Shown here piece after piece: positions 5,287 through 61,961 of a stretch of 64,000 bases of DNA. The DNA comes from Candidatus Omnitrophota bacterium (GTDB lineage Bacteria > Omnitrophota > Gorgyraeia > Pluralincolimonadales > Pluralincolimonadaceae). The position numbers and the translations under genes are program-made. The stretch lies in NCBI GenBank assembly GCA_041653595.1, contig JBAZFB010000001.1:68467-132466 (forward strand), written 5' to 3'. Position 1 is the stretch's first letter; every line of letters begins with the position of its first letter. A model generated the notes under the pieces. It did no database searches. It saw only the letters and a program-made list of their open reading frames with translations, and had not been told where the DNA came from.

Positions 5287-7656
5287 TTAGCCGCACTTGG
5301 AATAGCCGCACGCCTTGCAGACCATGCAGCCTTCGACGTGCTGGAGCGCGCCGCCGCAATCCGGGCAGACACCTACGACGTTGCCGAGCTTGTTCTTCCC
5401 CTTCGCTTCGCTCAGGACTCCGCCCTTCACTTCGCTCAGGACACCGGCTTTCGCGGAAGGCAACTCTTCGGCCCTTACTTCAGGCGCGGACTGCGGAGCC
5501 GCGGCGACGTCCTGCGCTTTCTTGTTCAGCAGCCGTCTTTCTATGACCTTTGCCAAGGCATCGGCGCAGGAGAATATCCTGCCGCCCTTCTCCCACGACG
5601 GGTTTGGGCACCTGATGCCGTTGAGCTGCTCTATTATTGAATGGGTATCGAGGCCGCAGCGCAGCGCGAGCGATACGAGCCTGCCGATGGCTTCGAGTTG
5701 GCTCGAGGCGCATCCGCCGGCCTTGCCCATCTGCGTGAATACCTCGAACGGCATCCCGTTCTCGTCCTCATTTATCGTGATATAGAGGTTGCCGCAGCCC
5801 GTGAGTATCTTCGTGGTCGTGCCCCTTGTGACCTCGGGCCTCGGGCGGGGTGATGTGCGCGCCTTATCTTCGGCCTTCGCTGCCGGGGCCTCGTTCCCTT
5901 CGGCGTTCTCCGCGTCCGGTTTCTCTTTAGTGCGGGCGATATAAAGGACCTGCTCTTCGCGGCTGCCGTCGCGGTATATGGTCACGCCCTTGCATCCCAT
6001 CTTATAAGCCAACAGGTATACCTCGTGCACATTGTCCGGCGTCGCGTTATGCGGGAAGTTGACCGTCTTCGAAACGGCGTTATCCGTATACTTCTGGAAA
6101 GCTGCCTGCATCCTGATATGCCAGATCGGCGTTATGTCGTGCGCCGTGACGAATACCCTCTTTATGTCGTCGGGGACCTCCTCTACGTCATGGAGCGTCC
6201 CTTTCTCGGCGATCTTCTGCATCAGCTCTTCGGAATAGAAACCGCGTTCCTTCGCGACGCCCTCGAATAACCTGTTGACCTCGACCAGTTTCGTCTTGTC
6301 CATCACCTCGCGGTAATAGGATATGGCGAAAACCGGTTCGATGCCGCTCGAGGTGTCGGCGAGTATGGAGAGCGTCCCGGTCGGGGCGATAGTGGTCAGC
6401 GTCGCGTTCCTCAGGCTCGGCCCGTCGGAATAAACGGAGCTCGAGAAGTTCGGGAACGGCCCGCGCCTTAACGCGAGCGCGTGCGCTTCCCTCCTCGATT
6501 CTTCCTGGATGAACGACATCACCTTCTCGGCCAATTCTATCGCTTCGTCGGAATTATAAGGGACCCCAAGCTTTATGAGCATCTCGGCGAATCCCATGAC
6601 GCCGAGGCCGATCTTCCGGTTGGCCTTGGTCATCGTCTCGATCTGCGGGAGCGGGAACTTGTTCATATCGATCACGTTATCGAGGAAATGGATCGCGAGT
6701 TTCGTCGTCCGGCGCAGCTTCTCCCAGTCGAGCTGGGGAGAGGAGGCATCCATGTCCACCATCTTAGAAAGGTTTATCGAGCCGAGGTTGCAGCTCTCAT
6801 AGGGGAGCAAGGGCTGCTCGCCGCACGGGTTCGTCGATTCGATCGCGCCGATCTTCGGCGTCGGGTTCGACTTGTTTATCCTGTCGATGAATATTATTCC
6901 CGGCTCGCCGTTCTTCCAGGCCCTCTTGACTATCATGTCGAATACTTCGCGGGCCTTCAGGTGCCCGAAGACTTTCTTGTTGTGCGGGGCGATGAGGTCG
7001 TATTCCTCGTCGCGCTCGACCCTCTTCATGAACTCTTCGGTGATCGCGACCGAGATGTTGAAATTCGTTATGTCCTTGTCCGTCTCTTTGCATTTTATGA
7101 AATCGAGGACATCCGGATGGTCGATGCGCAGTATGCCCATGTTCGCGCCGCGGCGTGTGCCGCCTTGTTTTACGGCGTGGGTGGCAGCGTCGAATACTTT
7201 CATGAAGGATACCGGGCCGCTCGCGATGCCGCCGGTCGTCTTTACCATCGAGTTGGCCGGGCGCAGCCTAGAGAAAGAGAACCCGGTGCCGCCGCCGGAA
7301 CGATGGATGAGCGCCGTGTTCTTTATCGCCTCGAATATCGATTCCATGGAATCTTCCACCGGCAGGACGAAACACGCCGACAGCTGCTGCAGCTCGCGTC
7401 CGGCGTTCATCAGGGTCGGTGAATTAGGCAGGAAGTCCAGGTTGTATATTATAGAGTAAAACTCATCCTCAAGCTTTGCCACATTATAATCTGGATCATA
7501 ATATGAGTCCGCTGAAGCTATGTTATGCGCTACGCGCCTGAAGAGCTCCTCCGGGGTCTCTATGACGCGGCCTTCCGAGTCCTTCCTGAGATAACGTTTT
7601 TCCAGGACTTTTTTGGAATTGGCTGATAAACCATTCTTGATACCTGTATCCCCCAT
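5287..7656 (-). CDS. nrdJ: Ribonucleoside-diphosphate reductase, class II (adenosylcobalamin-dependent) NrdJ
   Basis: NPCGEQPL active-site motif and C-terminal CPDCGG..CMVCKACG zinc ribbon. Probable start MGDTG at 7656 with AGGAGG-8nt-ATG. The ORF-track start at 7692 is an upstream extension. Confidence 0.9.
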   Translation of the reverse strand: MGDTGIKNGLSANSKKVLEKRYLRKDSEGRVIETPEELFRRVAHNIASADSYYDPDYNVAKLEDEFYSIIYNLDFLPNSPTLMNAGRELQQLSACFVLPVEDSMESIFEAIKNTALIHRSGGGTGFSFSRLRPANSMVKTTGGIASGPVSFMKVFDAATHAVKQGGTRRGANMGILRIDHPDVLDFIKCKETDKDITNFNISVAITEEFMKRVERDEEYDLIAPHNKKVFGHLKAREVFDMIVKRAWKNGEPGIIFIDRINKSNPTPKIGAIESTNPCGEQPLLPYESCNLGSINLSKMVDMDASSPQLDWEKLRRTTKLAIHFLDNVIDMNKFPLPQIETMTKANRKIGLGVMGFAEMLIKLGVPYNSDEAIELAEKVMSFIQEESRREAHALALRRGPFPNFSSSVYSDGPSLRNATLTTIAPTGTLSILADTSSGIEPVFAISYYREVMDKTKLVEVNRLFEGVAKERGFYSEELMQKIAEKGTLHDVEEVPDDIKRVFVTAHDITPIWHIRMQAAFQKYTDNAVSKTVNFPHNATPDNVHEVYLLAYKMGCKGVTIYRDGSREEQVLYIARTKEKPDAENAEGNEAPAAKAEDKARTSPRPRPEVTRGTTTKILTGCGNLYITINEDENGMPFEVFTQMGKAGGCASSQLEAIGRLVSLALRCGLDTHSIIEQLNGIRCPNPSWEKGGRIFSCADALAKVIERRLLNKKAQDVAAAPQSAPEVRAEELPSAKAGVLSEVKGGVLSEAKGKNKLGNVVGVCPDCGGALQHVEGCMVCKACGYSKCG

Positions 7657-8859: not shown

Positions 8860-10845
8860 TTATATCTTAAAAGCCTCTTCAAATTCAATATCATCCAGAC
8901 CTTCTCCCACCCGTTCTACATCCATAAACCGTTCCAGGATACTTCCCTCTTTAAGGAAGCGGGAGACTTCGGTAAATATAGAGCCGGTATTCCCGCCGGC
9001 ATAACTCCTCATCCAGCGGGCGGAGCGGTCTATGGCAGGTTTTAATAGTATGAGGTTATCTTTTGCCCGCGTGGCTGCCACGTAAAACAGGCGGCGTTCC
9101 TCTTCTATCGCGTCGTTATCGTCCATGGACTGGTACGACGGCAGATGTCCCTCGGCCACGTATATGACGAAGACCGTGTGCCACTCGAGCCCCTTCGCCG
9201 AGTGTATCGTCGAAAGCGTCATCGCGTGGTCATGTTTGCCCCGTAAGCCCGCATCGAGGACGCTCTTCTCCGGCGGCTCGAGCGCCATGTCGGTCAGGAA
9301 GGTCTCGAGCGATTTATACCTCGAGGCGATGCGCTCCAGCGAATTCAAGTCCGGCGCGCGCCTGTGGAAATCGTCGTATTTCGCCTTGAGCAGAGGATCG
9401 TAATATTTCAGGAATTCTTTCAGGAGTTCAACGGGCGGGTATTTCCCGGGTTTCAATTCTTTCAGCATATCGATAAGGTTTACCAGGTCTTCTGATTTTT
9501 TTAAAATGTCCTTGTCGACCTCGAGGCCTTTATTTTTTTCTATCATCTGCTCGGTTATCTTCGCGGCGGTCTTCTGCCCGATGCCGCGCATCAATAACAA
9601 GGCCCTGTGCCAGCTCACTTGGTCGTCGGGATTTTGAGCGATACGCAAGTATGAGATGACGTCCTTTATATGCGCCGCCTCGACGAACCTCTGTCCGCCG
9701 TATTTTACGAACGGGATATCGTGGTTGGCGAGCTCGATCTCAAGGTCGTTCGAGTGCCAACCGGCGCGGAATAGCACGGCGATCTCCTTGAGCATGACGC
9801 CCTCATCGACCAGTTCGATTATCTTCTGGACGATATATCTGGATTGGGTGTTTTCATCGCGCGCTTCGACGAACACCGGGGATTTCCCTTCGCGCTTCTT
9901 GGTAAAAAGGACCTTCTCGAACTTCTCCTCGGCGTTCTTTATGACCTCGTTGGTCAGGTCGAGTATCTGCTGGGTCGAGCGGTAGTTCTCCTCCAGCATT
10001 ATCACCTTCGCGCCCCTGAACACCTTCGGGAAGTCTATGATGTTCTTGAAATTCGCGCCGCGGAACGAATATATACTCTGGGAATCGTCGCCGACGACCA
10101 TGACATTATCGTGCTCCGATGCCAGCAAACGCACGATATCCGCCTGCAGCCTGTTCGTGTCCTGGTATTCATCGACCATTATATACTGATACTGTTCCGA
10201 GAGCCTCGAGCGGACATCCTTGTGCTCATGGAGCAGCCTTTTCAAGAATACGAGCAGGTCGTCGTAGTCCATGAGAGACTTCTCGCGCTTGTATTTGGCG
10301 TATCCCTCTTTTATCTTCTTTATCGCGCTCTCCCATTCGACGAACTGCGGGTATTCGAGCTCGAGGATTTTGCCGATATCGTCCGATTTGTTGACGGATT
10401 TCGAGATGACGTCGAGAAGCGCCCCCTTGCGAGGGAAGTGCTTCTCGAGATGGTCGAAGCCGAACTTGACGCGCACGATATTTACCGCGTCCTCGGCGTC
10501 GGATTCGTCCATTATCGTGAAATTATTGGGATATTCGACCAGCTTCGCGTATTTGCGCAGGACCATATTGGCGAATGAGTGGAAGGTGCCGCCGGCGACC
10601 CTCTCGCAGCGGTCGTCGAGCAATTTAGCGGCGCGGCGGAGCATCTCTTCGGACGCCTTGCGGGTAAAGGTAAGCAGTAATATCCGGTCGGGCTTGATTC
10701 CTTTTTCAACGAGGTAGGCCACGCGGTAGACGAGCGTGCGCGTCTTCCCGCTGCCTGCCCCGGCGATGACAAGATGCGGCCCTTCAGTGGACTCGACCGC
10801 TTTAAACTGGGCGGGATTTAATTCTTTTTTATAATCTATCTTCAT
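8860..10845 (-). CDS. ATP-dependent DNA helicase, UvrD/PcrA/Rep family
   Basis: Walker A AGAGSGKT plus helicase motifs (DEYQDTN, VGDDSQSIY, ...TIHSAKGLE). Confidence 0.85.
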   Translation of the reverse strand: MKIDYKKELNPAQFKAVESTEGPHLVIAGAGSGKTRTLVYRVAYLVEKGIKPDRILLLTFTRKASEEMLRRAAKLLDDRCERVAGGTFHSFANMVLRKYAKLVEYPNNFTIMDESDAEDAVNIVRVKFGFDHLEKHFPRKGALLDVISKSVNKSDDIGKILELEYPQFVEWESAIKKIKEGYAKYKREKSLMDYDDLLVFLKRLLHEHKDVRSRLSEQYQYIMVDEYQDTNRLQADIVRLLASEHDNVMVVGDDSQSIYSFRGANFKNIIDFPKVFRGAKVIMLEENYRSTQQILDLTNEVIKNAEEKFEKVLFTKKREGKSPVFVEARDENTQSRYIVQKIIELVDEGVMLKEIAVLFRAGWHSNDLEIELANHDIPFVKYGGQRFVEAAHIKDVISYLRIAQNPDDQVSWHRALLLMRGIGQKTAAKITEQMIEKNKGLEVDKDILKKSEDLVNLIDMLKELKPGKYPPVELLKEFLKYYDPLLKAKYDDFHRRAPDLNSLERIASRYKSLETFLTDMALEPPEKSVLDAGLRGKHDHAMTLSTIHSAKGLEWHTVFVIYVAEGHLPSYQSMDDNDAIEEERRLFYVAATRAKDNLILLKPAIDRSARWMRSYAGGNTGSIFTEVSRFLKEGSILERFMDVERVGEGLDDIEFEEAFKI

Positions 10846-35857: not shown

Positions 35858-36288
35858 GTATTTTCGTCTTTCTTTTTCATAATAAAAATTTTAGTAACTA
35901 TAATTTTTTGAATGCTGCTTGTATTATTATACCTCATAATTATAAGTATTTAAAGGAGTTAGGCAAAGGTCTTTGATCAATTTGTGGAGGGTAAATCAGT
36001 TTGGCTTTTGATTATCTATCAGTATCGGGTGGCGCACTCTGGGAAATAAGAATATTATCCTTGATAAGCTACAATTTTAGCAGAAATCCCTGGGGACAGT
36101 TCTGGGATTAAATACAAAAACGTCCCCTTACTTCCCTAAAAAGCCAAGTCGCTGGTTGGAAAGCCATTTTCTAGGTGACTTTGGGATACTGTGTATAATT
36201 TTTGCACCGTGCGCTCTTGAGGCAGGATAAAACTACTTGTCAATTAAGTTAATTCCGGACCCTATTTTTTCTCTGTTCTTTTTCATTT

Positions 36289-39600: not shown

Positions 39601-42600
39601 ATGCGAGTAATCTTTCCCTTCACGTATTCAAAGATGCTGGTTCTGTTGCGCATGTCGGTTATTGTGGTAATGCCTGTTTCAAAGAGATATTCATAAGTCG
39701 CCTGATTTCCTTTTGCGTCAGTAACGCGGTCGCAGACGTCGCTTATGTTCGAAGGGTCCCTGATATAATGATATTCCGTCCTGTTTCCCTCTGAGTCGAT
39801 ATACGCAGTTACGTTATGGATATTGCTTGCGTCATTATATTCGTATGTTTCCGAATAATTTTCGGGGCCTGTCACCGAAATTAGGTTTCCATTGTCATAA
39901 TAATAATTATAGGTAACCGAAAGCGAACCGGCAACACCTGTCACCGTCGAAATCCGGCCGTTACTATAGGTAAAGTCAATATGCCTGTCCCAATTTTCGT
40001 ATATCATATACAAAATGGGGCCGCCATAAATATACGAAAGACGGTTTCCGTTTAAGTCCTCAATATATAAAACACGACGGGTACCTTGATAGTTATCGAA
40101 ATGATATCTCTGTTTCCCGTACTTAATGGTCCAGCGCATCCAGTCATATGTCCCGTCACCATTATTGATTAGCTCCGAGCCGTCGCATTCAGGCCCGTAG
40201 TAGGAGCCGGCGCCGTTATACTCGTAACTAAATATCGTTCCATCCGGCCCGGTTATGATGACTTTTTCGGGATCCTGCCCTTGAGCCGGGATTACCTGCA
40301 TTTTGACATCGTGCGCAAGCGCCCAACCAAAGCCTATTTTGGAATCAACCTCACTGCTCGATGAATAGGTCCTTGTAAGATTCAGGCTGATGCCGTGTTT
40401 TCTCCCCCTTCCTAGTATGAATATATCTGTCTTCGGAATGATCACCTGGCCGCCTGTTATGGCTATTGGGTCAACGGGGGTGTCGCACTGTGTCGACGCG
40501 CGTTGCCCGCTTCCCATATATGTCATTCCTAACCCGCCGTCCGCATGCGGGTTATGCCCCGTCATCGAATCGTAAAGGTTAACACCCATCAAGTAATCCT
40601 CAGGAAGGCTTGCCTCCAATTTGCCATACTCTACTTCCCATTCGCCATTCGGAAGAACACCGGGATCGTTCTTAGTTATGCCTCCCTCGGATGACCGGCG
40701 ATTACCGCCCTTAATGGCTAACAGCTCGTCGGCAGCTAATTCTTTAACGTCAGGACGAGCCTTGACCGCCAGTATCTGTCCCTTCCATCTGGCCGGAAGC
40801 TCTTTATAGCTAATGAATTCGCTTGATAAATTATCTCTAACCAATATGCCGGCTGATCTTATACTCTCAAGGAATGCGTAATGACCGCTGTCTATAAACA
40901 GTATCGCTTCCCCGTTGTATTCCTTCAGTTTTTCTGCATCAATCTTAAATGCTGATACTTTCAAACCGTTATTTTTGGCCGCCTTTATAAGACCAAGTAA
41001 AGTGGTCCCGTCTTTATCCGTTCCGGCGGATTTAGCTATCTCTTTCGGCGTAGATTTTATACCGTAAGTCTTAAGCAATAAATTCAATGCATATGGGCCG
41101 CAAGCGTTATTTAGCGATGTCGCCGCTGACTGTTTGCCCAATCTTTCTATCAGCTTCAGCACCCCTTTGGCCTCGGCTGTCAGGAAATGATACGGATAAT
41201 TGGACACTAGCCGCTCAAAAGTTTCTTTGGCAAGCGGATAATTCCGCTGGTAATACCGGACCTTTCCTATCCAGAATAGAGCTTCCGCGGCATAGTAGGT
41301 GTCGCTGTTTAACGCTGTTTCATATTCCTTAAGGGCTTTTTCATAATCTTTGCGTTCAAAATATATGTGGCCTATCTCTATATGAAGCGGAGCCACAAAT
41401 TTACCCTCATCTATCTTGCTCTGCGCGTAAGCTATCGCCTCATCCGCCCCGTAATATATGACCTTACCCGTCATAGGATCTCTTTTCTTCTTCTCGCGTA
41501 ACGCTTGGACGATCTTAATATCGTCTCCTTGCGACTTAAAATATTCTATCGCCTTGTCGAATGACCTGAGCTGCCAATATATGTCCCCCAAAGCGTCCAG
41601 GTCGTTTGCTGTGTTAAAATATTTGATTGCCTGGTTAAACTGCTTTCTTTTTAGGGCCATCCTTCCCAATCCGGACATATCGTTGGCATCAGTAAAATAC
41701 TTCTCGGACTTTACGTAATCGCCAATTTCGCCGTAGAGAAAACCGAGGCCGGAAATATCATTAGCCTTTTGAAATAGTTCCAACGCTTTGTCGAATTTCT
41801 TGTCCTTAAGTTGAGTGAGACCTAATCCCGAGAGGTCGTTGGCGGCTGTAAAACAATTCTCCGCCTCCTTGAAATCACCCGCTCCCAGATAAACGTGACC
41901 TAACAACGAAAGATCATTCGCATTCTTGGCATATTGCGCGGCTCTTGCATAATCTTTCTGCACGCAATAGGTAAACCCTATGCCCGAAGGGTCGTTCGCT
42001 TTGGTAAAACTATCCAGCGCTCCCTTATAATTATGCCCCTTAAGATACGCATAGCCTAAGGCGGACGGGTCGTTTGCCTGTTTCGCGTATGATAGAGCGG
42101 CGGAATAGCTATTCATACCGTTATAGGCGACACTTAAGCCGGATTTGTCGTTTGCCTGGCTAAAAGAGCTGATAGCTTTGTCGTATTGCCTCTTGCCGCA
42201 GTAGGCATGGCCTAAGGCAGATAGATCGTTTGCCGCCAAGGCATATTTTATCGCTTCGTCGAATTGTTTCTTTCCTGAATAAGCAAGGCTTATCCCGGAG
42301 AGATCATTTGCCTGCTTAAAATATTTTAAAGCGCTGTCAAAATCCCTTTTGCCGCAGTAGGCATGGCCTATCCCCGAATTGTCCTTGTTAGAAGCGAACT
42401 GAGTAAGCGCCTCGTCGTATCTTCTTTCAGCCAAAAGGACAAGGCCGAGGCCCCCTTTGTCCCCTGCCTGGCTAAACCATCCCCGCGCTTCGTCTATCTT
42501 ATTTTCTCCCAGAGCCGCCAGGCCCATCCCCGAATAATCATTCGCCTGCCTGAAATATTCTCTTGCCTTGCTAAAATCTCTTTTTCCGCAGTAAGCGAGG

Positions 42601-42923
42601 CCTATCCCCGAGTAATCCTTCTTCTGCTCAAAGTGTCTTATTGCTTCATCATATTGGCGTTTTCCGCAATAGGCCATCCCCATCCCGGAAAGATCATTTG
42701 CTTTTTCAAAACTTTCCTTCGCAATGTCGTAACACCTCATCCCCAGATAAGCTATCCCCGCGCCGGAATAGTTATTCTTTTTTAGATATATTTCCAGCGC
42801 TCCTTTATAGTCGCCTTGCTCGATAGCCCGGAAGGCGATAACATCATCGGCAGATTCGAAACCCAGTATAAATAACGAACCCAATATCAACGCCGCGGCC
42901 ACTAAAACTATTTTCCTTTTCAT
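36648..42923 (-). CDS. Sec-secreted RHS/YD-repeat polymorphic toxin with an N-terminal 26-aa repeat array and an internal C39-like peptidase domain
   Basis: Probable start MKRKIVLV at 42923 (AAGGAG-6nt-ATG). Signal peptide. About 16 copies of ANDxSGxGxAYCGKRxYDxAIxxFxQ. C39 motifs NNACGPYAL and GHYAFL. Many YD repeats (YEYDAFGN, YTYDTLGR, YEYDGLGRLT). RHS core end ...NKYDPWGLY followed by a ~165-aa unrecognised C-terminal domain. Confidence 0.8.
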   Translation of the reverse strand: MKRKIVLVAAALILGSLFILGFESADDVIAFRAIEQGDYKGALEIYLKKNNYSGAGIAYLGMRCYDIAKESFEKANDLSGMGMAYCGKRQYDEAIRHFEQKKDYSGIGLAYCGKRDFSKAREYFRQANDYSGMGLAALGENKIDEARGWFSQAGDKGGLGLVLLAERRYDEALTQFASNKDNSGIGHAYCGKRDFDSALKYFKQANDLSGISLAYSGKKQFDEAIKYALAANDLSALGHAYCGKRQYDKAISSFSQANDKSGLSVAYNGMNSYSAALSYAKQANDPSALGYAYLKGHNYKGALDSFTKANDPSGIGFTYCVQKDYARAAQYAKNANDLSLLGHVYLGAGDFKEAENCFTAANDLSGLGLTQLKDKKFDKALELFQKANDISGLGFLYGEIGDYVKSEKYFTDANDMSGLGRMALKRKQFNQAIKYFNTANDLDALGDIYWQLRSFDKAIEYFKSQGDDIKIVQALREKKKRDPMTGKVIYYGADEAIAYAQSKIDEGKFVAPLHIEIGHIYFERKDYEKALKEYETALNSDTYYAAEALFWIGKVRYYQRNYPLAKETFERLVSNYPYHFLTAEAKGVLKLIERLGKQSAATSLNNACGPYALNLLLKTYGIKSTPKEIAKSAGTDKDGTTLLGLIKAAKNNGLKVSAFKIDAEKLKEYNGEAILFIDSGHYAFLESIRSAGILVRDNLSSEFISYKELPARWKGQILAVKARPDVKELAADELLAIKGGNRRSSEGGITKNDPGVLPNGEWEVEYGKLEASLPEDYLMGVNLYDSMTGHNPHADGGLGMTYMGSGQRASTQCDTPVDPIAITGGQVIIPKTDIFILGRGRKHGISLNLTRTYSSSSEVDSKIGFGWALAHDVKMQVIPAQGQDPEKVIITGPDGTIFSYEYNGAGSYYGPECDGSELINNGDGTYDWMRWTIKYGKQRYHFDNYQGTRRVLYIEDLNGNRLSYIYGGPILYMIYENWDRHIDFTYSNGRISTVTGVAGSLSVTYNYYYDNGNLISVTGPENYSETYEYNDASNIHNVTAYIDSEGNRTEYHYIRDPSNISDVCDRVTDAKGNQATYEYLFETGITTITDMRNRTSIFEYVKGKITRITDSNNGVTNYTFDDSYIRDSVTDENGKGCGWVQDRFGSALQLDNDEGYTAYFTYDPTFHYITSITDPKERAWTYDYDSNGNLRHRYTPSPNNQGTATIEKQYDQYGCLTKIIDPEGIATDYTYDTYGNTTKETDGEGNYIQYTYDTLGRMTSSKYGDNSGSDPIATSYEYDGLGRLTRKTYPDSSYEEYTYDKNSNLLTFRDANNHTTTYVYNELNQCVSITDPGTKVTQYEYDAFGNMTKLIRYVNGNPVETTYEYNDHYNRLTKVTDPTQEITIFTYESSPPLLNDSKNYTTMKKYRPDSTLLAVESRTFDSYYRIKTVADGLGNTTTYNYDEVGNLTSVVDQNGHTTTYTYDPNVNVVLTETDPLNKTTTCTYYKNGKLKTKTDANGNTITYTYDLAGKLYSVSYPDSNSVVYLYNRYGKTATMTDYYGATTYTYNSRTWLSSVDGPEANDTITYFYDYAGNRISMTTPAGYFSYAYYANNLPYTLTNSQSQTTTFYYDTANRLTRMNYPNSTYTEWLYYDNDRVNTLTVKDGSQNTLSSYHYDYNSLGKITTISNNFGNTYNFIYNDAGRLTHEDKTGSYPYTRNYTYDNAGNRTSETRDGLPISNSYNAANQITSRILPYESISYSYDNNGNLVVETNSRTGTTYYYYDYENRPWGIITPYINTYYAYSGDGRRITTNIGGNVVKYLYDGLAPLIERDPSNNILIMYSKLPSAPGGIGGLVSSFDWTNTLYYHDSNLGNVNQITNSSGVVIQTYDYDAFGNIIYQSGSLESKYAYKTKEYTPQTGLVFFGARYYNPLIGRFITKDPLEMIDGPNLYVYLNNDPINKYDPWGLYVAIGARPVLGMGSHTVIILHPDNPSDFANSGFYKNSKGELELTLSANPKDGKLVATPCSSADRPEKLKNSQRILDKRSDTNLIKDILNSAGKYENDLSYDATPWPIDPFYNSNSYTYGILEDAGVSNIPNLPGWQPGADKPIPLY
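41480..42790 (-). repeat. Tandem ~78-bp coding repeats (26-aa half-TPR-like unit) in the N-terminal region of the RHS protein
   Basis: Approximately 16 consecutive 26-aa units with consensus ANDLSGLGxAYCGKRxYDxAIxYFxQ, read from the translation. Confidence 0.6.
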
Positions 42924-55871: not shown

Positions 55872-56387
55872 CTATTCCAGCCCGCCTTTCGTCTTCCCGC
55901 CCTCGGCGTCCAGCTTCCTGAAGAACTCTTCCGGCCGCAGGTTCTCTATCTCTTTCTCGAAATTCTTCACCTCGTCTTCGCTTATGGGCTTGTTTATGAC
56001 CGGGCAGAGTTCGAGCACCTTCTCATCGATAAATACCGGCGCGCCGGTCCTCACGGCCAAGGCTATGGCGTCGGACGGCCGCGAATCTATCTCCAGGGTC
56101 TTATCACCCTGTTTCAGTATGACGGTGGCGTAATAGGCGTTGTCCTTCAAGTCGCTTATGATGACCTTCTCGATCGAGCCGCCGAGCGCCTTGATGAGGT
56201 TTACGGTAAGGTCGTGCGTCAGCGGCCTTTTGAATTTCCCTCCCTCGAGGACCATCACGATCGATGTCCCCTCGCTCACGCCTATCCAGATGGGTATCAG
56301 CCTCGAGCCGTCCACCTCTTCCAGGGTGACGACATACTGCGCTAATGGAGGGATAAATATCAACGAGTAGATCTTGGCGAGTTTCAT
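55872..56387 (-). CDS. Bifunctional nuclease (BFN, PF02577) family protein
   Basis: DSRPSDAIALAVR signature. 171 aa. Confidence 0.6.
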   Translation of the reverse strand: MKLAKIYSLIFIPPLAQYVVTLEEVDGSRLIPIWIGVSEGTSIVMVLEGGKFKRPLTHDLTVNLIKALGGSIEKVIISDLKDNAYYATVILKQGDKTLEIDSRPSDAIALAVRTGAPVFIDEKVLELCPVINKPISEDEVKNFEKEIENLRPEEFFRKLDAEGGKTKGGLE

Positions 56388-56428
56388 TCCGCGCTCTCCT
56401 GCTACAATATTAGACCATACCCTCTATC

Positions 56429-57056
56429 TAGGGACGGTTCTTGAGCCAATCGGAGAAGTGTCCCCTATTAATATTAAAAATTTCTGAAAGAAAATCCCTT
56501 TTTCTTGCGTCTATTATATAACAAGGAGGTTTAAGATGCCAAGGAGCGCAAGAGTATTTATAGAAAATGCCTGCTATCATATTATAGCAAGGGGAAACCA
56601 AAAACAAGAGGTTTTCTTTGAGACAGTTGACTACGAAAAATATCTTCAACTGCTGAAAAAGTACAAAACAAAATACCATTTTAAACTCTACGGTTACTGC
56701 CTTATGAATAATCATGTACATATGGTGATAGACCCCGGGAAACCACGAGAAATATCCAAAGCCATACAGGGACTGAATTTATCTTATTCGATATGGTTCA
56801 ACGCAAAATATGACAAAATCGGGCATCTTTGGCAGGACCGTTTTAAGAGTATGGTTATTGAAAAAAATGATTATCTTATTACCTGTATCAACTATATTGA
56901 GGCCAACCCCGTCAGGGGAAACATAGTAAACAGCCCTTTGGATTATCTTTGGAGTAGCTATAAAGAAAGAATCTTCGATATAAAAAATGGGGTTTTAGAT
57001 GTACCAGAATTATTTTGAGGGACATTTCTCCGATTGGCTCAAGAACCGTCCCTAGA
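56429..57056 (+). mobile_element. REP-RAYT-REP unit: IS200/IS605-like Y1 (REP-associated tyrosine transposase) gene flanked by inverted REP-like repeats
   Basis: CTAGGGACGGTTCTTGAGCCAATCGGAGAAGTGTCCCC at 56429-56465. Its reverse complement (2 mismatches) is at 57018-57056 and begins at the RAYT stop codon. Confidence 0.7.
56536..57018 (+). CDS. REP-associated tyrosine transposase (RAYT; IS200-like Y1 HuH transposase)
   Basis: 160 aa. HuH motif NNHVHMVID and catalytic Tyr region (NYIEANPVRG). Typical RAYT size. Confidence 0.75.
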   Translation: MPRSARVFIENACYHIIARGNQKQEVFFETVDYEKYLQLLKKYKTKYHFKLYGYCLMNNHVHMVIDPGKPREISKAIQGLNLSYSIWFNAKYDKIGHLWQDRFKSMVIEKNDYLITCINYIEANPVRGNIVNSPLDYLWSSYKERIFDIKNGVLDVPELF

Positions 57057-58218
57057 GCATCTCAAGGACTAAACATTTGAGGTAATTCGATTCGGGGAAG
57101 TTCAGGAGGATAGGGTGGTCGGCGGGCTGGATGCGTTTCTCTATGAGGCGCGCGCGCCTGCGCGATTCGGACAAAGCCTCCGCCAGGATGTCCATGAATT
57201 GCCCTTCCGAAAGGTTGTAAGAACACGAGCAGGTCATAAGGTGCCCGCCTTTTTTCAGTAATTTCATAGCCCTGAAATTTATGTCTATATAACCGCGCGC
57301 CGCGGCCTGTATATCTTTCTTTGACTTCGCGAACGCCGGCGGATCGAGAACTATGAAGTCGAACTGCCTTTCTTCTTTCTGGAATGATTTTAATGTCTCG
57401 GAGACCTTCCCCTCGACTGTTTCGATTTTCGTGAGGCCGTTAAGTTCGGCGTTCTCCTTTAATCCCCGGAGCGCAGGACCCGAGGAATCGACGGCGGTCA
57501 CCTCGCCGGCCGATAGCGCCATATGCAGGGAGAAGAGGCCCTGGTATGAGAAACAATCGAGCGCCTTGCCCCTGGAGTATTTTTCCGAGGCGATGTGGTT
57601 CTCGCGCTGGTCGAGGTACGCGCCGGTCTTCTGGCCGCTCATTATATCGACAAGATATTTTATATTACCCTCGCGGACCACTGCCTTCTCAGGCGGCCTG
57701 CCATAGAGGACCTCTTTCTTCTCTTCGAGGCCTTCGAACTTCCTCATAGCCGAATCGTTCCTCGCGACTATAGACGCCGGCTTAAGCAGGTCCTTCAGGC
57801 CGTCAACGATCGTATCTTTTATATTGTCCATGCCGAGGCATAACGTCTGTATGGACAGGTGCTCGCCGTATTTATCCACAATGAGCGAGGGGAGGCCGTC
57901 GGCCTCGGAATGGGCGATGCGGTACGCGTCGGCGTCCTTTACGGTCTTCTTCCTGTACTCTATGCATCCGGAAAGCCGGCTGCGCCAGAACCCCGCGTCG
58001 ACCGGCACGTCATCGTAAGTGATTATTCGCAGGGCGATCTTCGACCTTTCATTATAAAAGGCCTTGGCAATGAATTTGCCGCTGTTGTCCAGGACTGAGA
58101 TTATCGAACCGGAGAGGGAAGGATCATTTCTTTCGAGATCATCCTTATATATCCACGGGTGGCCGGTGCGGAACCATGCCGCGCCTTTCCTTGTGATTCT
58201 CAGGGACGGGGTTTGCAT
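57052..58218 (-). CDS. Class I SAM-dependent rRNA methyltransferase, RlmI/RlmK-like (PUA-like N-domain + MTase)
   Basis: 388 aa; MTase motifs (LDCFSYQGLFS, DPPAF). Confidence 0.7.
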   Translation of the reverse strand: MQTPSLRITRKGAAWFRTGHPWIYKDDLERNDPSLSGSIISVLDNSGKFIAKAFYNERSKIALRIITYDDVPVDAGFWRSRLSGCIEYRKKTVKDADAYRIAHSEADGLPSLIVDKYGEHLSIQTLCLGMDNIKDTIVDGLKDLLKPASIVARNDSAMRKFEGLEEKKEVLYGRPPEKAVVREGNIKYLVDIMSGQKTGAYLDQRENHIASEKYSRGKALDCFSYQGLFSLHMALSAGEVTAVDSSGPALRGLKENAELNGLTKIETVEGKVSETLKSFQKEERQFDFIVLDPPAFAKSKKDIQAAARGYIDINFRAMKLLKKGGHLMTCSCSYNLSEGQFMDILAEALSESRRRARLIEKRIQPADHPILLNFPESNYLKCLVLEML

Positions 58219-58255
58219 AGAATGATTCTAACAGGCGATATGCTTGCGTGTCAAT

Positions 58256-58266
58256 TGTGATATAAT
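58256..58266 (+). promoter_or_regulatory. Extended -10 promoter (TGaTATAAT) positioned for a leaderless MFS transcript
   Basis: TATAAT at 58261-58266 with TG at -15/-14. The ATG at 58276 is only 9 nt downstream and has no SD. Confidence 0.4.
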
Positions 58267-58275
58267 ATCGCCGAT

Positions 58276-59583
58276 ATGGAAAAGAAAGGGAAGATAAGGC
58301 AAAGCCTCAGGAATTCCTTCATAGACGGCGCATTCTGCTCGGCGATGATAGGTTTTGTCGACCAGTATATAACGCCGTTCGCGGTCGCGCTTAAGGCGAC
58401 GAGCGAGCAGATAGGCATGCTTACCGCTTTCCCGAACCTCGTCGCTTCCCTGATACAGCTCAAATCGGCGGACGTTACCGAACACCTCAAGAGCCGCATG
58501 AGGATAATAAGGATATTCGTATTCTTCCACGCCTTTATGTTCCTCCCTATCCTGCTTATACCGCTCATTTTCACCACTAACAGGGCGGGATGGCTTATCG
58601 TCTTTGTCACAATGGCGGCCTCTTTCAACGCGTTCCCGGGCCCGGCATGGACGAGCCTGATGGCCGACCATCTTCCCGCGCGCAGCAGGGGAAAGTATTT
58701 CGGCTGGAGGAACAGGCTGTTGGGCATGATCACCGTGGCGTGCGCGATTCTCGCGGGTTTTATCCTCAATATCTTCGGCAAGGATAAGCTCTACGGTTTC
58801 ATGGTGATACTCGGGCTTGCTTTTGTGTCGCGGTTCATATCCTGGTATTTCCTGAGCAAGATGTACGAGCCGCCGATAAAGGTCACGAGCGAGCACTATT
58901 TCACGTTCTGGGATTTCATAAAAAGGACGAAACAATCGAATTTCGCGAAGTTCGTCATATATGTCGCGAGCATCAGCTTCGCCCAAAATATCTCGGGGCC
59001 GTTCTTTGCGGTATATATGATCAGGGACCTCAATTTAAGTTACGGCATGTACACCATCATAGTGACGTCCTCGACCATAGCGACCCTGCTTACCATGGGG
59101 ATATGGGGAAGGCATGCCGACGTGGTCGGCAACATGAAGGTCATAAGGCTCACGTCGTTCTTCATACCGGTCATCCCGGTCTTATGGCTCTTTTCGCATA
59201 ATGTCTACTATCTTATAATAATCCAGCTGTTTGCCGGATATGTCTGGGCCGGATTCAACCTCTCGATATTTAATTTCGTATATGACGCGGTCACGCCGGA
59301 GAAGAGGACGCGCTGCGTCTCGTATTTTAACGTCATAAACGGGATGGCGATATGCTGCGGCGCCTTACTGGGAGGTTTCCTCGCAAAGAGCCTGCCGCCG
59401 ATATTCGGTTACCGGCTGCTGACCTTATTTTTGCTTTCGGGCGTCCTGCGGGCCGTATTTTCCGCGACTATACTTCCTATGGTAAAGGAGGTCAGGCGCG
59501 TGGAAAAGATCAGCAGCCTCGACCTCTTCTTCAGCATCACCCGGCTGCGGCCGATAGAGGTAGAAGGCGAAAAAGATATTTAG
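58276..59583 (+). CDS. MFS transporter
   Basis: 435 aa, 12 TM; MFS signature between TM2 and TM3 (GRHADVVG...). Confidence 0.75.
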   Translation: MEKKGKIRQSLRNSFIDGAFCSAMIGFVDQYITPFAVALKATSEQIGMLTAFPNLVASLIQLKSADVTEHLKSRMRIIRIFVFFHAFMFLPILLIPLIFTTNRAGWLIVFVTMAASFNAFPGPAWTSLMADHLPARSRGKYFGWRNRLLGMITVACAILAGFILNIFGKDKLYGFMVILGLAFVSRFISWYFLSKMYEPPIKVTSEHYFTFWDFIKRTKQSNFAKFVIYVASISFAQNISGPFFAVYMIRDLNLSYGMYTIIVTSSTIATLLTMGIWGRHADVVGNMKVIRLTSFFIPVIPVLWLFSHNVYYLIIIQLFAGYVWAGFNLSIFNFVYDAVTPEKRTRCVSYFNVINGMAICCGALLGGFLAKSLPPIFGYRLLTLFLLSGVLRAVFSATILPMVKEVRRVEKISSLDLFFSITRLRPIEVEGEKDI

Positions 59584-59668
59584 GGACGGTTCTTGAGCTA
59601 ATCGGAAAAGTGTCCCCCATCCAAATACTAAGGGGACACTTTTAGCTTTGGCTCAAGAACCGTCCCTC
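59581..59668. repeat. REP doublet: two inverted copies of the same REP-like element found around the RAYT gene
   Basis: TAGGGACGGTTCTTGAGCTAATCGGAAAAGTGTCCCCC at 59581-59618 and its inverted copy at 59632-59668. The first copy begins at the MFS stop codon; the second ends 2 nt after the GH116-like stop. Confidence 0.7.
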
Positions 59669-61961
59669 TTATTTTCCGGAAGAGGGACTTAAGGATATTC
59701 TCGTATGGGTCGTCTATCTCCAGTAAGAGTTCCCAGACGGCGCGGGCGCGCTGGTATTGCTCGGGATTGGTCGGCCGCGGAGTGCCCCCTCCGTCATGCC
59801 ATCCTTCGGGGGTGTTGAACCAGTAGGCGCTCGGTTCGTGTCCGTAGACGATATAATAGCAGCCGTACGCCGCCTTAAGCGCCTCTTCTTTAAGGCCGAG
59901 GTGGTACATGGTCGCGGCCATAAAATATGTGGAACCCGGCCAGACCTCCCTGGCCATGTTGATATTTATATCGCTTCCGTCGGCGTTCCTGCTGTTAATG
60001 GCTCCGCAGTCGCCCACGCCGTCGCCGTTAAAATCATTGAGCGGCACGACGCACATCTCATAGACCTTTTTCAGGTATCGGACCATACGCTCGCGCGGAA
60101 GGATATCGGGCAATTCCGTCGTCTCGCAGAACCTCTGGCCGTTCAGCCCGTCGGCCATTATGGCGCCGGAATTTTTTCCCGCGGTGTCCATCCTGTAATA
60201 CTGCCCCGCTTCATTCCACAGCTGTTTGTCGAGGTTTGTCCTCGCTTTATCAAGGAGTCCGAGCGCTTCCTTAAGTATCGGGTCGCGCTGGACATGCGCC
60301 AGCTTTACCACCGCCTCGAGCGCTCCGACCCAGAGCCCGCCGCATAAGAGGCTGGTGCCGTACAGGCCCCACGCGTCGTAGGTATTATCCGAACCGTTGT
60401 TGTTCGGCAGCCCGTCCCCGTCCGTGTCCTGGGACTTCATGTACTCGTAGGTCATCTTCACTGCCGCCCAGCAGTAATCTAGGAACTCCCTGTCCTCGCG
60501 GACATAATAATACCTGGCTACCTGCTGGATGAACTTGGCGTGCAGGTCTTTCCAGTGCAGCTTGTTCGTACCGTAGTTATCGAATTTGAAGAACGGGTCG
60601 TCAGCCGGCGCGCCGAAGTCGTGCGGCGTCTGGTGGAGGCTGTCGTAATGCATTATACCGTCGGCGAAACACCTCAATATGTCCCGTTCTATCTCCGGCC
60701 AGAACTTGAGCGTCAGTATCGAACAGTAATGCCTGACGTCGAAAGTCTCGCAGAACGGGTAGCCTATCGATTCCATGACGAAGAACTTATGGTCGTCCTC
60801 ATGGAGCCCCATATATTCCCGGTCGTGGCCGGACTTAAGCCCGGATTCGTAGAACGTCCCGCCGAACTGCGTGTAATATAATTCGTTGAAAGCCGCGGTC
60901 TTGAGCCAGGCCGGGTATTTCCTGTTCCTTATGACGGGATTCATCCACGCGTCGACCTTCTTCTCCCATTCCGGGTAATTCGCGAGGGCTTCTTTCGCGA
61001 TATTGAAGGATTGCGCGGAATCCCGTCCGAAATATTCGGTATATTTCCTCCACCACTCGGTACCGGTGACGCACGCGTCGCCGAATTTCACTACCGGAAA
61101 ATCCCACGAGAGGACGACCGGCACTACCTTTGACTCTCCGGGACCGAGCGAGACCTTGACCGCTATGGCCGCGGCCGAATCAGAACCGTCGAGCCTGCTG
61201 TTGCCGAGAAGGCCGTCGGCCTTAAAATCCCTCCAGACCTCGGAGCCGTCGCCGTCCTTATTCCAGCTGAGCGCGTATGTAAGGACCGCACCCTTATCCG
61301 CCCTGGATGCGACGCACCATTCCGAATTCTGTGTCTCGGGCGTATTGTCCGGGCGGTCGGCCTTTAAGACTATTCCGGTGATGTCGCCGTCATTTTTGAG
61401 GATATTTTTATAGCCCCTCCGGCGCAGGGACCCGCTGAAAGGCGGCTGCGGCCAGGTGAGCATAACCGAGGCCTCGGCTTTCTCCTTGGCAGGATTGGAA
61501 AATTTAAACTGCCAGACGGCGACAGGATAAGACGTCTCTTTGTAATTATTCGGGATTATAGGCGAGAAGAACTTCTGCGAGATATCGAGGGTGAAGCAGT
61601 CATACGTGACCCATCCCTTTGGCTGGAGGGCGCAATACGCCGCTTCCCCTTTATTTAATTTATCCCATGCCGGTTTTAGCGACGGGTTCGTCCCGAGCGT
61701 CTTTACTTTAGCCGGGCCGGACCCGACTTTCTCGTAGACATGGAACGCGCCCTCATAAAGCCATGTCTGGTCGTAGGCGCCGCACTTGAGCGCCCAAGGG
61801 CCGAACGCGCCGGAGATGCTGTACATGAAAGCTCCGGCGCCGAACCCCCCGAGCGCCACGCCCCTGTCCGGGCAGGAGCTCGCCGTGTTAGAAGGCACAT
61901 CGCCGAGACCCCTCTTCCAGGCGCAATCGGGTATCTCGAAAAAATCCCTCTTCCTCGTCAT
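59628..61961 (-). CDS. GH116-like (GBA2-type beta-glucosidase/glucosylceramidase family) glycoside hydrolase
   Basis: 777 aa. N-terminal beta-sandwich with GGFGAG motif, C-terminal (alpha/alpha)6-like region. Assignment by overall resemblance only. Confidence 0.5.
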   Translation of the reverse strand: MTRKRDFFEIPDCAWKRGLGDVPSNTASSCPDRGVALGGFGAGAFMYSISGAFGPWALKCGAYDQTWLYEGAFHVYEKVGSGPAKVKTLGTNPSLKPAWDKLNKGEAAYCALQPKGWVTYDCFTLDISQKFFSPIIPNNYKETSYPVAVWQFKFSNPAKEKAEASVMLTWPQPPFSGSLRRRGYKNILKNDGDITGIVLKADRPDNTPETQNSEWCVASRADKGAVLTYALSWNKDGDGSEVWRDFKADGLLGNSRLDGSDSAAAIAVKVSLGPGESKVVPVVLSWDFPVVKFGDACVTGTEWWRKYTEYFGRDSAQSFNIAKEALANYPEWEKKVDAWMNPVIRNRKYPAWLKTAAFNELYYTQFGGTFYESGLKSGHDREYMGLHEDDHKFFVMESIGYPFCETFDVRHYCSILTLKFWPEIERDILRCFADGIMHYDSLHQTPHDFGAPADDPFFKFDNYGTNKLHWKDLHAKFIQQVARYYYVREDREFLDYCWAAVKMTYEYMKSQDTDGDGLPNNNGSDNTYDAWGLYGTSLLCGGLWVGALEAVVKLAHVQRDPILKEALGLLDKARTNLDKQLWNEAGQYYRMDTAGKNSGAIMADGLNGQRFCETTELPDILPRERMVRYLKKVYEMCVVPLNDFNGDGVGDCGAINSRNADGSDININMAREVWPGSTYFMAATMYHLGLKEEALKAAYGCYYIVYGHEPSAYWFNTPEGWHDGGGTPRPTNPEQYQRARAVWELLLEIDDPYENILKSLFRKIRGTVLEPKLKVSP

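Follow-up and report, generated by a model that had tools for sequence, protein, structure and literature searches.

A probable REPtron/TIRtron locus in Omnitrophota: a single-copy Y1 HuH gene bracketed by inverted 36-nt imperfect palindromes

The closest relatives by sequence of the protein considered here are the TIRYTs, which we take to correspond to Bertels' Group 1. In TIRtrons a TIRYT gene stands between long terminal inverted repeats (TIRs) (Di Nocera, De Gregorio & Rocco 2013, PMC3733652), and their products correspond to TnpAY1 subclass 2.1, which was described as not REP-associated and whose members carry a C-terminal extension of about 50-90 aa (HTH-like) and have a median length of 238 aa (Quentin et al. 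2018, PMC6006769). TnpAY1 class 2 as a whole is recognised by a Y---NP signature and a low intragenomic copy number (PMC6006769). The published TIR families are moderately abundant, occur as singles and dimers and include self-complementary TIRs; the same study gives a GGGGWSAS motif for TIRYT inverted repeats and reports that repeats favour intergenic regions of the tandem and convergent kinds (PMC3733652). REPtron or REPIN-RAYT systems are known from E. coli, Pseudomonas and Stenotrophomonas (Nunvar 2010; Bertels & Rainey 2011; Ton-Hoang 2012; Messing 2012, PDB 4ER8; Corneloup 2021, PMC8266576).

The locus described here lies in a 64,000-nt stretch of an Omnitrophota genome (hereafter the window), for which an earlier note had reported a Y1 transposase gene between inverted repeats and a second pair of the same repeats nearby. 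The features are the following.

56430..56465 (35-mer core 56431-56465), plus strand: repeat c1, A type with AATCGGAGAA centre, 0 mismatches in the pattern search; upstream REPtron arm, its 5' end outward and facing the start of the BFN gene (56387)
56513..56542, minus strand: sigma-70-like promoter match, TTGGCA-18-TATAAT, 11/12, a consensus match only
56536..57018, plus strand: Y1 HuH tyrosine transposase-like gene of TIRYT/RAYT type, 160 aa
57018..57053 (core 57018-57052), minus strand: repeat c2, A type, 2 mismatches; downstream REPtron arm
59582..59617 (core 59583-59617), plus strand: repeat c3, A type, 2 mismatches; left arm of the doublet
59618..59631: doublet spacer, 14 nt between the 35-mer cores (12 nt between nhmmer envelopes), the loop of the doublet hairpin
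59632..59667 (core 59632-59666), minus strand: repeat c4, B type with AAAGCTAAAA centre; right arm of the doublet
59662..59688: small extra hairpin, GTCCCTCTT / AAGAGGGAC, read from the sequence as the end of c4 plus a truncated repeat start

The repeat unit is a 36-nt imperfect palindrome, A-GGGACGGTTC…GTCCCY, and its four copies were recovered where the earlier note had put them. A pattern search, for which 100 shuffles gave a chance expectation of none, returned c1-c3; c4, which differs from the pattern at five central positions (AAAGCTAAAA in place of AATCGGAGAA), was detected through the inverted-repeat pairs I3/I4 and by nhmmer (E=2e-12). The arms around the Y1 gene (pair I1, c1/c2) are 36-38 nt long and 97% complementary, and c3 and c4 make up the inverted doublet that had been noted between MFS and GH116. 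In c1, c3, c4 and most copies of the wider family the GGGGWSAS motif of TIRYT repeats reads GGGGACAC; c2 departs from it and reads AGGGACAT. The four copies span no more than 3.2 kb, and nhmmer returned no other significant copy in the 64-kb window (a weak partial match at 36092-36127, E=0.17, was left uncounted). Such clustering is what a chance or purely local duplication, devoid of wider meaning, would produce; however, no copies are expected by chance and the repeat stands in 61 distinct contexts elsewhere, so this explanation is refuted and we give it practically no weight.

These contexts, from 23 genome loci and 40 metagenome loci (61 when counted as unique contexts), belong essentially all to Omnitrophota MAGs and metagenomes. 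By our estimate about nine chance matches to the exact 19-mer core would be expected over the whole 596-Gb collection, and all matches found fall in one lineage. The element is thus dispersed in other genomes and not confined to the window, but copy number appears low against the tens to hundreds anticipated in the earlier note: the representative MAGs, which are fragmented genomes of relatives, hold 1-11 exact-core copies (the highest count, in JBAZFE, being 11 exact 19-mer matches on 8 contigs), and about a third more copies diverge from the exact search pattern. The repeats occur as singletons and as inverted doublets, the latter usually pairing one A arm with one B arm, and in 22 of 22 inverted pairs the 5' ends point outward. 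Spacing within these pairs is either 1-14 nt (13 pairs) or 234-590 nt (9 pairs), the wider ones mostly enclosing the Y1 gene or its remnants. Among intergenic contexts, 26 are tandem and 15 convergent, as against 7 divergent; a further 11 'intragenic' sites, which came from crude stop-to-stop ORF calls, were dropped, being mostly open frames upstream of true starts.

The edges of the unit are sharp. An A is found at -1 in 65/65 copies and conservation ends at +36, giving a 5' context of N-T/C-A followed by GGGAC, with a G at -3 (which would make GTAG) in a few copies only. A strict TA target is unsupported, since the A at -1 is invariant but a T occupies -2 in only 57% of A-type and 32% of B-type copies. 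The doublet flanks are unequal, with TA beside the A arm and CA or GA beside the B arm, and this difference between the two arms rules out a DDE-type MITE with target-site duplication.

The 160-aa product of the Y1 gene is a member of the Y1 HuH superfamily, as the earlier note had proposed: it matches Pfam Y1_Tnp (PF01797) with 72.9 bits (E=3e-20, cut-off 23), and carries the HuH motif H60-V61-H62, a WQ motif (W99-Q100) and a single catalytic tyrosine, Y120, in YIEANP. In an alignment of 20 homologues H60, H62, Y120, N124 and P125 are invariant, Q100 is conserved and W99 nearly invariant; the HuH motif and Y115 of E. coli TnpAREP align with their counterparts here. The AF2 model (pLDDT 87.8) has the ferredoxin-like fold, and its top Foldseek match in the PDB is TnpAREP (4ER8, TM 0.71), with the transposases of IS608 and ISDra2 next. 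With Y120-I-E-A-N124-P125 and one copy in the window, the protein has both the signature and the low copy number of TnpAY1 class 2. Contigs that encode the identical protein are one of 185,650 bp from NCBI and short ones from JGI and ENA. A sigma-70-like match (56513..56542) overlaps the start of the Y1 gene and is directed through c1 toward BFN.

The earlier note had called the arrangement a canonical REP-RAYT-REP. The inverted flanks are indeed REPtron-like, and the HuH and tyrosine motifs hold on alignment, but in sequence the protein falls with the TIRYTs described by Di Nocera 2013 and not with the RAYTs of GTAG-tagged REPs. Against reference sequences taken from Additional file 5 of that study (PMC3733652), phmmer gave 80-130 bits for twelve TIRYTs, with 36-39% identity over the whole 160 aa, compared with 13-31 bits for the RAYTs of E. 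coli, Pseudomonas and Stenotrophomonas (13.6-30.9 for the four reported; a fifth, sml_2816, was matched solely in BLASTP, E=0.001). The NCBIfam equivalog REP_Tyr_transpos (NF047646) scores 73 bits, below its cut-off of 80. E100, H101 and R104, named as the GTAG-contact positions of E. coli TnpAREP (PMC6006769), align here with S105, M106 and E109. The locus therefore departs from a canonical REPtron (RAYT groups 2 and 3; subclasses 2.2 and 2.5) in its equivalog score, its contact positions and its tag. Only the catalytic core is present in the protein, which terminates about 20 residues past the WSSY motif and is devoid of the HTH-like C-terminal domain. Its close homologues are nearly all 156-177 aa long; the nearest 50%-cluster relatives, most of them 190-325 aa, show similarity confined to their N-terminal ~145 residues.

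We then considered the chromosomal setting. The order GDE-BFN-(repeat-gene-repeat)-rlmI-MFS-GH116 is kept, with an intact gene at 72-75% amino acid identity, in the lineages L022, L036, L043 and L006; L045 and L021 have the same GDE-to-GH116 order, but there the Y1 gene is a pseudogene. The gene thus keeps its site between BFN and rlmI in at least five lineages besides the window. Homologues at 56-64% identity occupy three other loci, all flanked by inverted AGGGACG…GTGTCCCC repeats, and the association of gene and flanking repeats was found in every lineage examined. The dN/dS of the Y1 gene (0.065-0.10) resembles that of its neighbour BFN (0.04-0.11); the gene is under purifying selection of a housekeeping-like kind. 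The gene is present once in the 64-kb window, and each close homologue cluster lies on one or a few contigs. Its composition differs from that of the surroundings: GC is 35.6%, against 52-57% in the neighbouring genes, and GC3 is 0.38-0.49, against 0.69-0.78 in the host context. The gene tree places L022 nearer to L043/L006 than L036, whereas rlmI and BFN place L036 with L043/L006. With its single copy, vertical inheritance and housekeeping-like evolution the gene fits the profile of a domesticated RAYT (Bertels 2017), with the caveat that, given the mild tree discordance and the persistently low GC3, strict vertical descent may not be the whole story.

The foreign-looking GC, the more distant homologues at different loci, and a doublet that has the geometry of the 620-bp unit minus its gene, 5' ends outward, would also fit an autonomous IS200/IS605-like insertion sequence made of the gene and its repeats, the doublet being its MITE derivative. 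We regard this as very improbable. The site on the chromosome is shared by at least 6 lineages, protein divergence and dN/dS match those of the neighbouring housekeeping gene, and the low copy number in the window and within each homologue cluster is at odds with a multi-copy element. The NCBIfam IS200 model (NF033573) gives 23 bits versus a cut-off of 55, and the tyrosine motif is the Y---NP of class 2 rather than the Y---Q of IS200. A tnpB gene is lacking, the flanking hairpins are mutually inverted, unlike IS200/IS605 ends, and no target-site duplications border the doublets (TA precedes the A arm, CA the B arm). What is shared with the IS200/IS605 TnpA proteins of IS608 and ISDra2 is the HuH/Y1 fold and, presumably, a chemistry on single-stranded hairpin DNA.

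Orthologous sites differ in their repeat content. At the MFS/GH116 junction L006 and L043 have an empty site, L021 retains a collapsed footprint (TAGGGACGGTCCCTGTAG) and the window has a filled site. The reverse is seen at one further position of the window:

10829..10845, minus strand: empty site, overlap of the stop of a NUDIX-like gene and the start of a helicase gene

Five related loci have a repeat copy exactly at this NUDIX/helicase junction and the window has none, although the flanks are ~25% diverged, which limits the precision of the insertion boundaries there. One orthologous site has either a single unit or a doublet, depending on the locus. This presence/absence polymorphism, with empty, footprint and filled sites, shows that the repeats turn over. 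Beyond c4, the small hairpin at 59662..59688 is followed by AAGGATATT, a stretch that duplicates the last MFS codons; to judge from the sequence, the two seem to be what is left of a previous event at this junction.

The position of the copies relative to stop codons was as the earlier note had described it, with copies at the MFS and RAYT stops and over the 3' end of rlmI. The MFS stop TAG (59581-59583) consists of TA plus the first G of c3, and the rlmI stop TAG (57052-57054, minus strand) of TA plus the first G of c2, whose opposite end abuts the TGA of the Y1 gene (57016-57018). The GH116 ORF (59628-61961, minus strand) runs right through c4, which lies wholly inside its 3' end and codes for about 12 residues (GTVLEPKLKVS), and stops at a TAG (59628-59630) in the doublet spacer; this read-through was absent from the earlier note. 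In the orthologous empty sites the MFS and GH116 stop codons overlap (CTAG), and it is there that the doublet landed: its insertion kept the MFS stop, destroyed that of GH116 and added 24 residues to GH116, a tail that looks like tolerated damage and not design. Across the family, the stop of the upstream gene mostly lies at -11 to +19 nt relative to the start of the repeat; the repeat's own TAG serves as the stop in 8 contexts (6 independent loci) and an internal TGA in 5.

From this positioning the earlier note had suggested selection of the repeats as terminators or mRNA stabilisers, that is, host-selected RNA elements whose function would set their place at stop codons. Besides the closeness to stops and the predominance of tandem and convergent regions, the doublet speaks for such a role, since folding, which the earlier note had proposed, gave one long hairpin (-33 kcal/mol, z -11), very stable on both strands and followed by U-rich stretches on either side in the window; a part for REPs in terminating transcription and stabilising mRNA has also been discussed (PMC3733652). 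Single units, in contrast, are weak hairpins (about -8 kcal/mol; c1 alone is imperfect, at -7.9 kcal/mol, z -3.1), and the 3' flanks of the family copies have no consistent T tract. A consensus scan for terminators and promoters, in which the number of sites was not above that in shuffles, called none of c1-c4 as a canonical intrinsic terminator, and an Rfam scan of 56000-60000 gave no family at threshold; a sub-threshold miRNA-precursor match on the doublet hairpin (31 bits versus 85) was taken as a generic hairpin match. Moreover, the same junctions lack the repeat in related species, the window doublet cost GH116 its stop, and c1 precedes a gene start instead of marking a 3' end. The placement itself needs no such selection. 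REP termini supplying TAG stops are a published general REP property (PMC3733652), and the empty-site comparison points the same way. As the unit is always preceded by A, often by TA, it begins (T)AG and has a TGA in a second frame, so that insertions in or beside a stop will often supply one. We consider RNA-level selection improbable as the explanation of the stop-codon position; a possible RNA role of the repeats would be compatible with the REPtron/TIRtron explanation.

Altogether, the data very probably describe a REPtron/TIRtron, a single-copy, chromosomally fixed Y1 HuH gene bracketed by inverted copies of its cognate 36-nt imperfect palindrome, and as such a new instance in Omnitrophota of a known type of system and not a new mechanism. 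With TIRtrons it shares, besides sequence similarity, the NHVH / WQ / YIE-NP signature and the bracketing of the gene by ~36-nt inverted repeats with a match to GGGGWSAS (GGGGACAC, compared by presence), and its repeats are likewise moderately abundant and occur as singles and dimers; their bias toward tandem and convergent regions agrees with the published one (PMC3733652). It differs in the length of the protein (160 aa versus 216-238 aa in TIRYTs, the HTH-like domain missing), in the conserved A/B dimorphism of the repeat centre and in its host phylum, which lies outside the surveys of PMC3733652 and PMC6006769. With REPtrons it shares a single-copy, vertically inherited Y1 gene, lost in some lineages, between inverted palindromic repeats over-represented elsewhere in the genome, and also the dispersal of repeats at gene 3' ends with some supplying TAG stops, the best structural match (4ER8), and doublets that fold into one long hairpin as heterodimers of two subtypes, comparable to Y and Z in BIMEs. 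The differences lie in the low scores to those RAYTs, in the unpaired GTAG or 5' GT[AG]G tag, replaced here by an invariant A at -1 and a frequent T or C at -2, in a long loop of ~15 nt, and in an apparent copy number of about ten per genome (1-11 exact-core copies per fragmented MAG) versus hundreds.

Judged from its homologues, TnpAREP of E. coli and TnpA of IS608, the enzyme would bind the single-stranded DNA hairpin of a unit or doublet, then cut and rejoin beside the hairpin foot via a 5'-phosphotyrosine at Y120, with H60 and H62 holding the metal. In this way it would copy or move the repeats and not its own gene, and repeats would persist where they do least harm, at the extreme 3' ends of genes in a compact genome. 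Catalysis on these repeats, and the cleavage position, are inferred from those homologous enzymes.

With these results the known range of REPtron/TIRtron systems comes to include Omnitrophota, a phylum whose members are largely uncultured and have small, compact genomes. The comparison offers a locus that is fixed, sister lineages in which the gene is either intact or decayed, and repeat sites in the empty, footprint and filled states; this clean data set could be used to ask whether TIRYT-type enzymes mobilise their flanking repeats. Caution is also called for in annotation, as several Omnitrophota genes (GH116 here, the NUDIX-like gene in relatives) have C-terminal tails encoded by a repeat or stops supplied by one. 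More tentatively, the observations could be read jointly as a phylum-wide, still-turning-over REPIN-like population driven by a minimal, core-only TIRYT, whose AT-rich codon usage, maintained past synonymous saturation, would reflect either selection throttling its expression or a cassette-like exchange of alleles between lineages via the flanking repeats; we hold this possible but doubtful. If true, it would mean that subclass 2.1 enzymes can maintain true palindromic repeat populations without the C-terminal domain.

Pattern, inverted-repeat and profile searches found four copies of the repeat in the window (c1 to c4), at the positions where the earlier note had seen them, whereas no match to the 35-mer is expected in shuffled sequence. 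The profile search of the 64-kb window gave no significant copy beyond these four.
56431-56465, + strand: repeat copy c1, matching the 35-mer with at most two mismatches
57018-57052, - strand: repeat copy c2, matching the 35-mer with at most two mismatches
58276-59583, + strand: MFS gene
59583-59617, + strand: repeat copy c3, matching the 35-mer with at most two mismatches
59628-61961, - strand: GH116 gene
59632-59666, - strand: repeat copy c4, which differs at five central positions and was identified as an inverted-repeat partner (I3/I4) and by the profile search (E=2e-12)

The arrangement was also as described: c1 and c2 are mutually inverted and bracket the ORF of the Y1 HuH gene (56536-57018; with its repeats, the REPtron), and c3 and c4, separated by 14 nt, form an inverted doublet that lies between the convergent genes MFS and GH116. 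The TAG stops of MFS and rlmI each consist of a flanking TA and the first G of the repeat, and the other end of c2 adjoins the TGA stop of the Y1 gene. The GH116 ORF runs across c4 to a stop within the doublet spacer. Elsewhere, an intergenic 35-nt palindrome at 36093-36127 (GGGACAGTTCTGGGATTAAATACAAAAACGTCCCC) has the termini of the family and an unrelated centre; its match to the repeat is statistically non-significant, and it may be a decayed or a distinct repeat. A run of diverged direct repeats at 41535-42711, with a period of 78 nt (26 codons), is most likely the coding sequence of a TPR/Sel1-like repeat protein and has no relation to the present finding.

Alignment of 65-69 unique copies gave sharp unit boundaries: an invariant A at -1 precedes GGGACGGTTC…GTCCCY, with conservation gone at +36. 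Two subtypes were told apart by their centres, AATCGGRGAA in the A type (base -2 is T in 57% of copies) and AAAGCTARAA in the B type (C in 42%, T in 32%). The unit is imperfectly palindromic, its stem about 10 bp long and its loop about 15 nt; single window copies folded at -8 kcal/mol (z about -3) and repeat variants with a CCGTCCC end at -13. The c3/c4 doublet, whose folding had been proposed as a check, formed one long hairpin of -33 kcal/mol (z about -11) on both strands.

The 160-aa protein matched Pfam Y1_Tnp with 72.9 bits and NCBIfam REP_Tyr_transpos with 73 bits (under the cut-off of 80), and its NCBIfam IS200 score was low (23 bits). The HuH and tyrosine motifs that it had been expected to carry were present on alignment: H60, H62, Q100, Y120, N124 and P125 were invariant across 20 aligned homologues, and W99 almost so. 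With Y120, N124 and P125 the protein carries the Y---NP signature described for TnpAY1 class 2 (PMC6006769). In a weak phmmer match to E. coli TnpAREP (4ER8; E=0.55), the HuH motif and Y120 paired with the HMH motif and Y115. When the AlphaFold model (pLDDT 87.8) was compared with the PDB, 4ER8 ranked first (TM 0.71) and the transposases of IS608, ISDra2 and IS200 came next.

The RAYTs and TIRYTs published by Di Nocera et al. 2013 (Additional file 5) served as references for placing the protein. It matched TIRYTs (e.g. Geobacter gbm_2474, dau_2153, tkm_1558 and S. maltophilia sml_1152) over its full length with 80-130 bits and 36-39% identity, versus just 13-31 bits for the GTAG-REP RAYTs of E. 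coli, Pseudomonas and Stenotrophomonas. On these scores we assign it to the TIRYT clade, as a subclass 2.1-like member with the signature NHVH/WQ/YIE-NP, although it is about 70 residues shorter than the clade. The earlier note, which had read the locus as a canonical REP-RAYT-REP, was thus right in kind, this being a REPtron-like system, but not as to the clade. Among 1.84 billion cluster representatives searched, 34,242 relatives were identified; the closest, mostly 190-325 aa in length, match within their N-terminal ~145 residues only, while the Omnitrophota family is uniform at about 158-160 aa.

Cognate repeats accompany the gene in other contexts. Four homologues with 56-64% identity, from three other contexts (recA/cinA, DUF192/T2SSE and gidA/phosphomutase), all had flanking inverted repeats built to the same plan (AGGGACG…GTGTCCCC), some of them doubled, with centres resembling the A and B types. 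The element is not unique to the window, since the 19-mer GGGACGGTTCTTGAGCYAA occurred at 23 loci of the species-representative genome set, nearly all labelled Omnitrophota, and at 40 metagenome loci, giving 61 unique contexts. Its copy number is low, however, and not the tens to hundreds anticipated for a REP family: exact 19-mer counts, which miss diverged copies (about a third more), were 11 in the MAG JBAZFE, 4 in JBAYMW and at most 3 in all others. The 5' ends pointed outward in all 22 inverted pairs, with spacers of 1-14 nt in 13 pairs and of 234-590 nt in the other 9, most of these around the gene or its remnants. Geometrically, therefore, the doublet is a REPtron minus the gene. The usual doublet joins an A arm to a B arm, so that its hairpin contains a small internal loop; the pairing is akin to the Y/Z heterodimers of E. 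coli BIMEs. Repeat sites lay in 26 tandem, 15 convergent and 7 divergent intergenic regions, the same bias as reported for REPs in general (PMC3733652). Our literature search found no paper connecting Omnitrophota with RAYT, REPIN or TIRYT.

The placement at stop codons, noted for MFS, rlmI and the Y1 gene, is real. For genes that enter a repeat at its 5' end, the reading frame ended on the TAG of the repeat in 8 contexts (6 independent loci), on a repeat-internal TGA in 5, and 5-11 nt upstream of the repeat in about 9. Termini that contribute TAG stops have been described for REPs in general (PMC3733652). The placement is a known consequence of such elements settling at extreme gene 3' ends, and the proposed selection as terminators or mRNA stabilisers is not needed to account for it. 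A terminator scan did not call the repeats as intrinsic terminators, and no family exceeded the threshold in an Rfam search.

We then compared orthologous junctions. At MFS/GH116, the stops overlap as CTAG and the repeat is absent in two related loci (L006 and L043), a third (L021) has a collapsed remnant (TAGGGACGGTCCCTGTAG), and the window has the full doublet plus an additional truncated repeat start. Insertion of the doublet kept the MFS stop and abolished that of GH116, so that the window GH116 has a 24-residue extension, about 12 residues of which are repeat-encoded. That truncated start (AAGAGGGAC) is found in the 38 nt separating c4 from conserved GH116 codons (59668-59705), where the final MFS codons also recur (AAGGATATT); this junction has been through more than a single insertion. 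The NUDIX/helicase overlap is empty in the window (10829-10845) and filled by a unit in five related loci, in which the NUDIX-like gene reads through it. Another orthologous site is occupied by one unit in L008 and L042 but by a doublet in L018/L052. Mini-palindromes of joined repeat termini (GGGACGTCCC) were found beside several REPtrons, adjoining full repeats in L043 (~1462-1480), L006, L036, L005 and L038, and one of this type lies at the L021 MFS/GH116 junction (~1575-1590). They look like repeats with the middle deleted or excision remnants, and recall the 'double foot' idea of Quentin et al. (PMC6006769). Four independent 5-9 nt tandem duplications (e.g. TAGAGCA, TATAGCATC and ATCAATC, each twice) adjoin the 5' boundary of a repeat (L022 ~920-960, L006 ~5281-5320, L021 ~4100-4125, L051 ~270-292); those at the rlmI junction stand between the gene's own stop and the repeat. 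The duplications may have arisen by nicking and repair or by slippage at the foot of the hairpin.

The HuH/Y1 catalytic set and fold, the hairpin-forming cognate repeats inverted around the gene and the insertion/deletion polymorphism of the repeats are the observed basis for a mechanism, which we infer from E. coli TnpAREP and IS608 (PMC8266576). By this analogy the enzyme would bind the folded single-stranded repeat hairpin, and would cleave and rejoin close to its foot via a 5'-phosphotyrosine intermediate, which would spread units or doublets and not the gene. The GTAG-reading residues of E. coli TnpAREP are not conserved in the 160-aa protein, which fits the differing 5' context of its repeat.

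The gene order GDE-BFN-[repeat-gene-repeat]-rlmI-MFS-GH116 was found again elsewhere in Omnitrophota, both in MAGs and on metagenome contigs; two of these carry the depositors' label 'Planctomycetia'. L006, L010, L023 (CAZYUB010000004.1) and L014 (CAZTIQ010000007.1) are titled 'uncultured Planctomycetia bacterium'; L006 is syntenic with the window, with a protein identity of 72-83%, and the label is probably wrong or from another scheme. Within the window, the minus strand carries rlmI, BFN and GDE, and the REPtron lies antisense within what was once perhaps a single transcription unit. A strong sigma-70-like match (TTGGCA-18-TATAAT; 56513-56542, - strand) lies across the transposase start codon and is directed through c1 at BFN.

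The transposase-like gene is intact in L022 (MAG JBAZFE), L036, L043 and L006, with 72-75% amino-acid identity, the same range as for rlmI, BFN and MFS. In L045 and L021/L053 it has decayed. The pseudogenes (L021 4162-4370, in the MAG JBAYMW, and L045 2493-2829) have kept their flanking repeats, and their loss of function as genes is recent, because rlmI of these two lineages is 96-97% identical to that of L022, whose gene is intact. The gene tree showed mild discordance with rlmI and BFN: the L022 gene is nearer to those of L043/L006 than is the L036 gene (89% versus only 80% nucleotide identity to L043), while BFN and the C-terminal region of rlmI group L036 with L043/L006. A possible reason is allele exchange, or a shift of rate, at the REPtron. 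The gene is also AT-rich, with a GC of 36% and a GC3 of 0.38 in the window and of 36-40% and 0.38-0.49 in orthologues, compared with a GC3 of 0.69-0.78 in neighbouring genes. This contrast was seen in every orthologue (L022, L036, L043, L006) and in distant homologues (L067-L071), and persists despite saturation of synonymous sites between lineages; A3 and T3 are about equal, so there is no strand asymmetry. The low GC3 suggests either that rare codons or AT-rich DNA are selected for, or that alleles have been replaced repeatedly. With these two caveats, the REPtron locus is fixed and vertically inherited. Among the intact orthologues dN/dS was 0.065-0.10 (0.04-0.11 for the adjacent BFN), and this constraint, together with the fixed locus, matches the 'domesticated transposase' pattern described by Bertels et al. 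2017.
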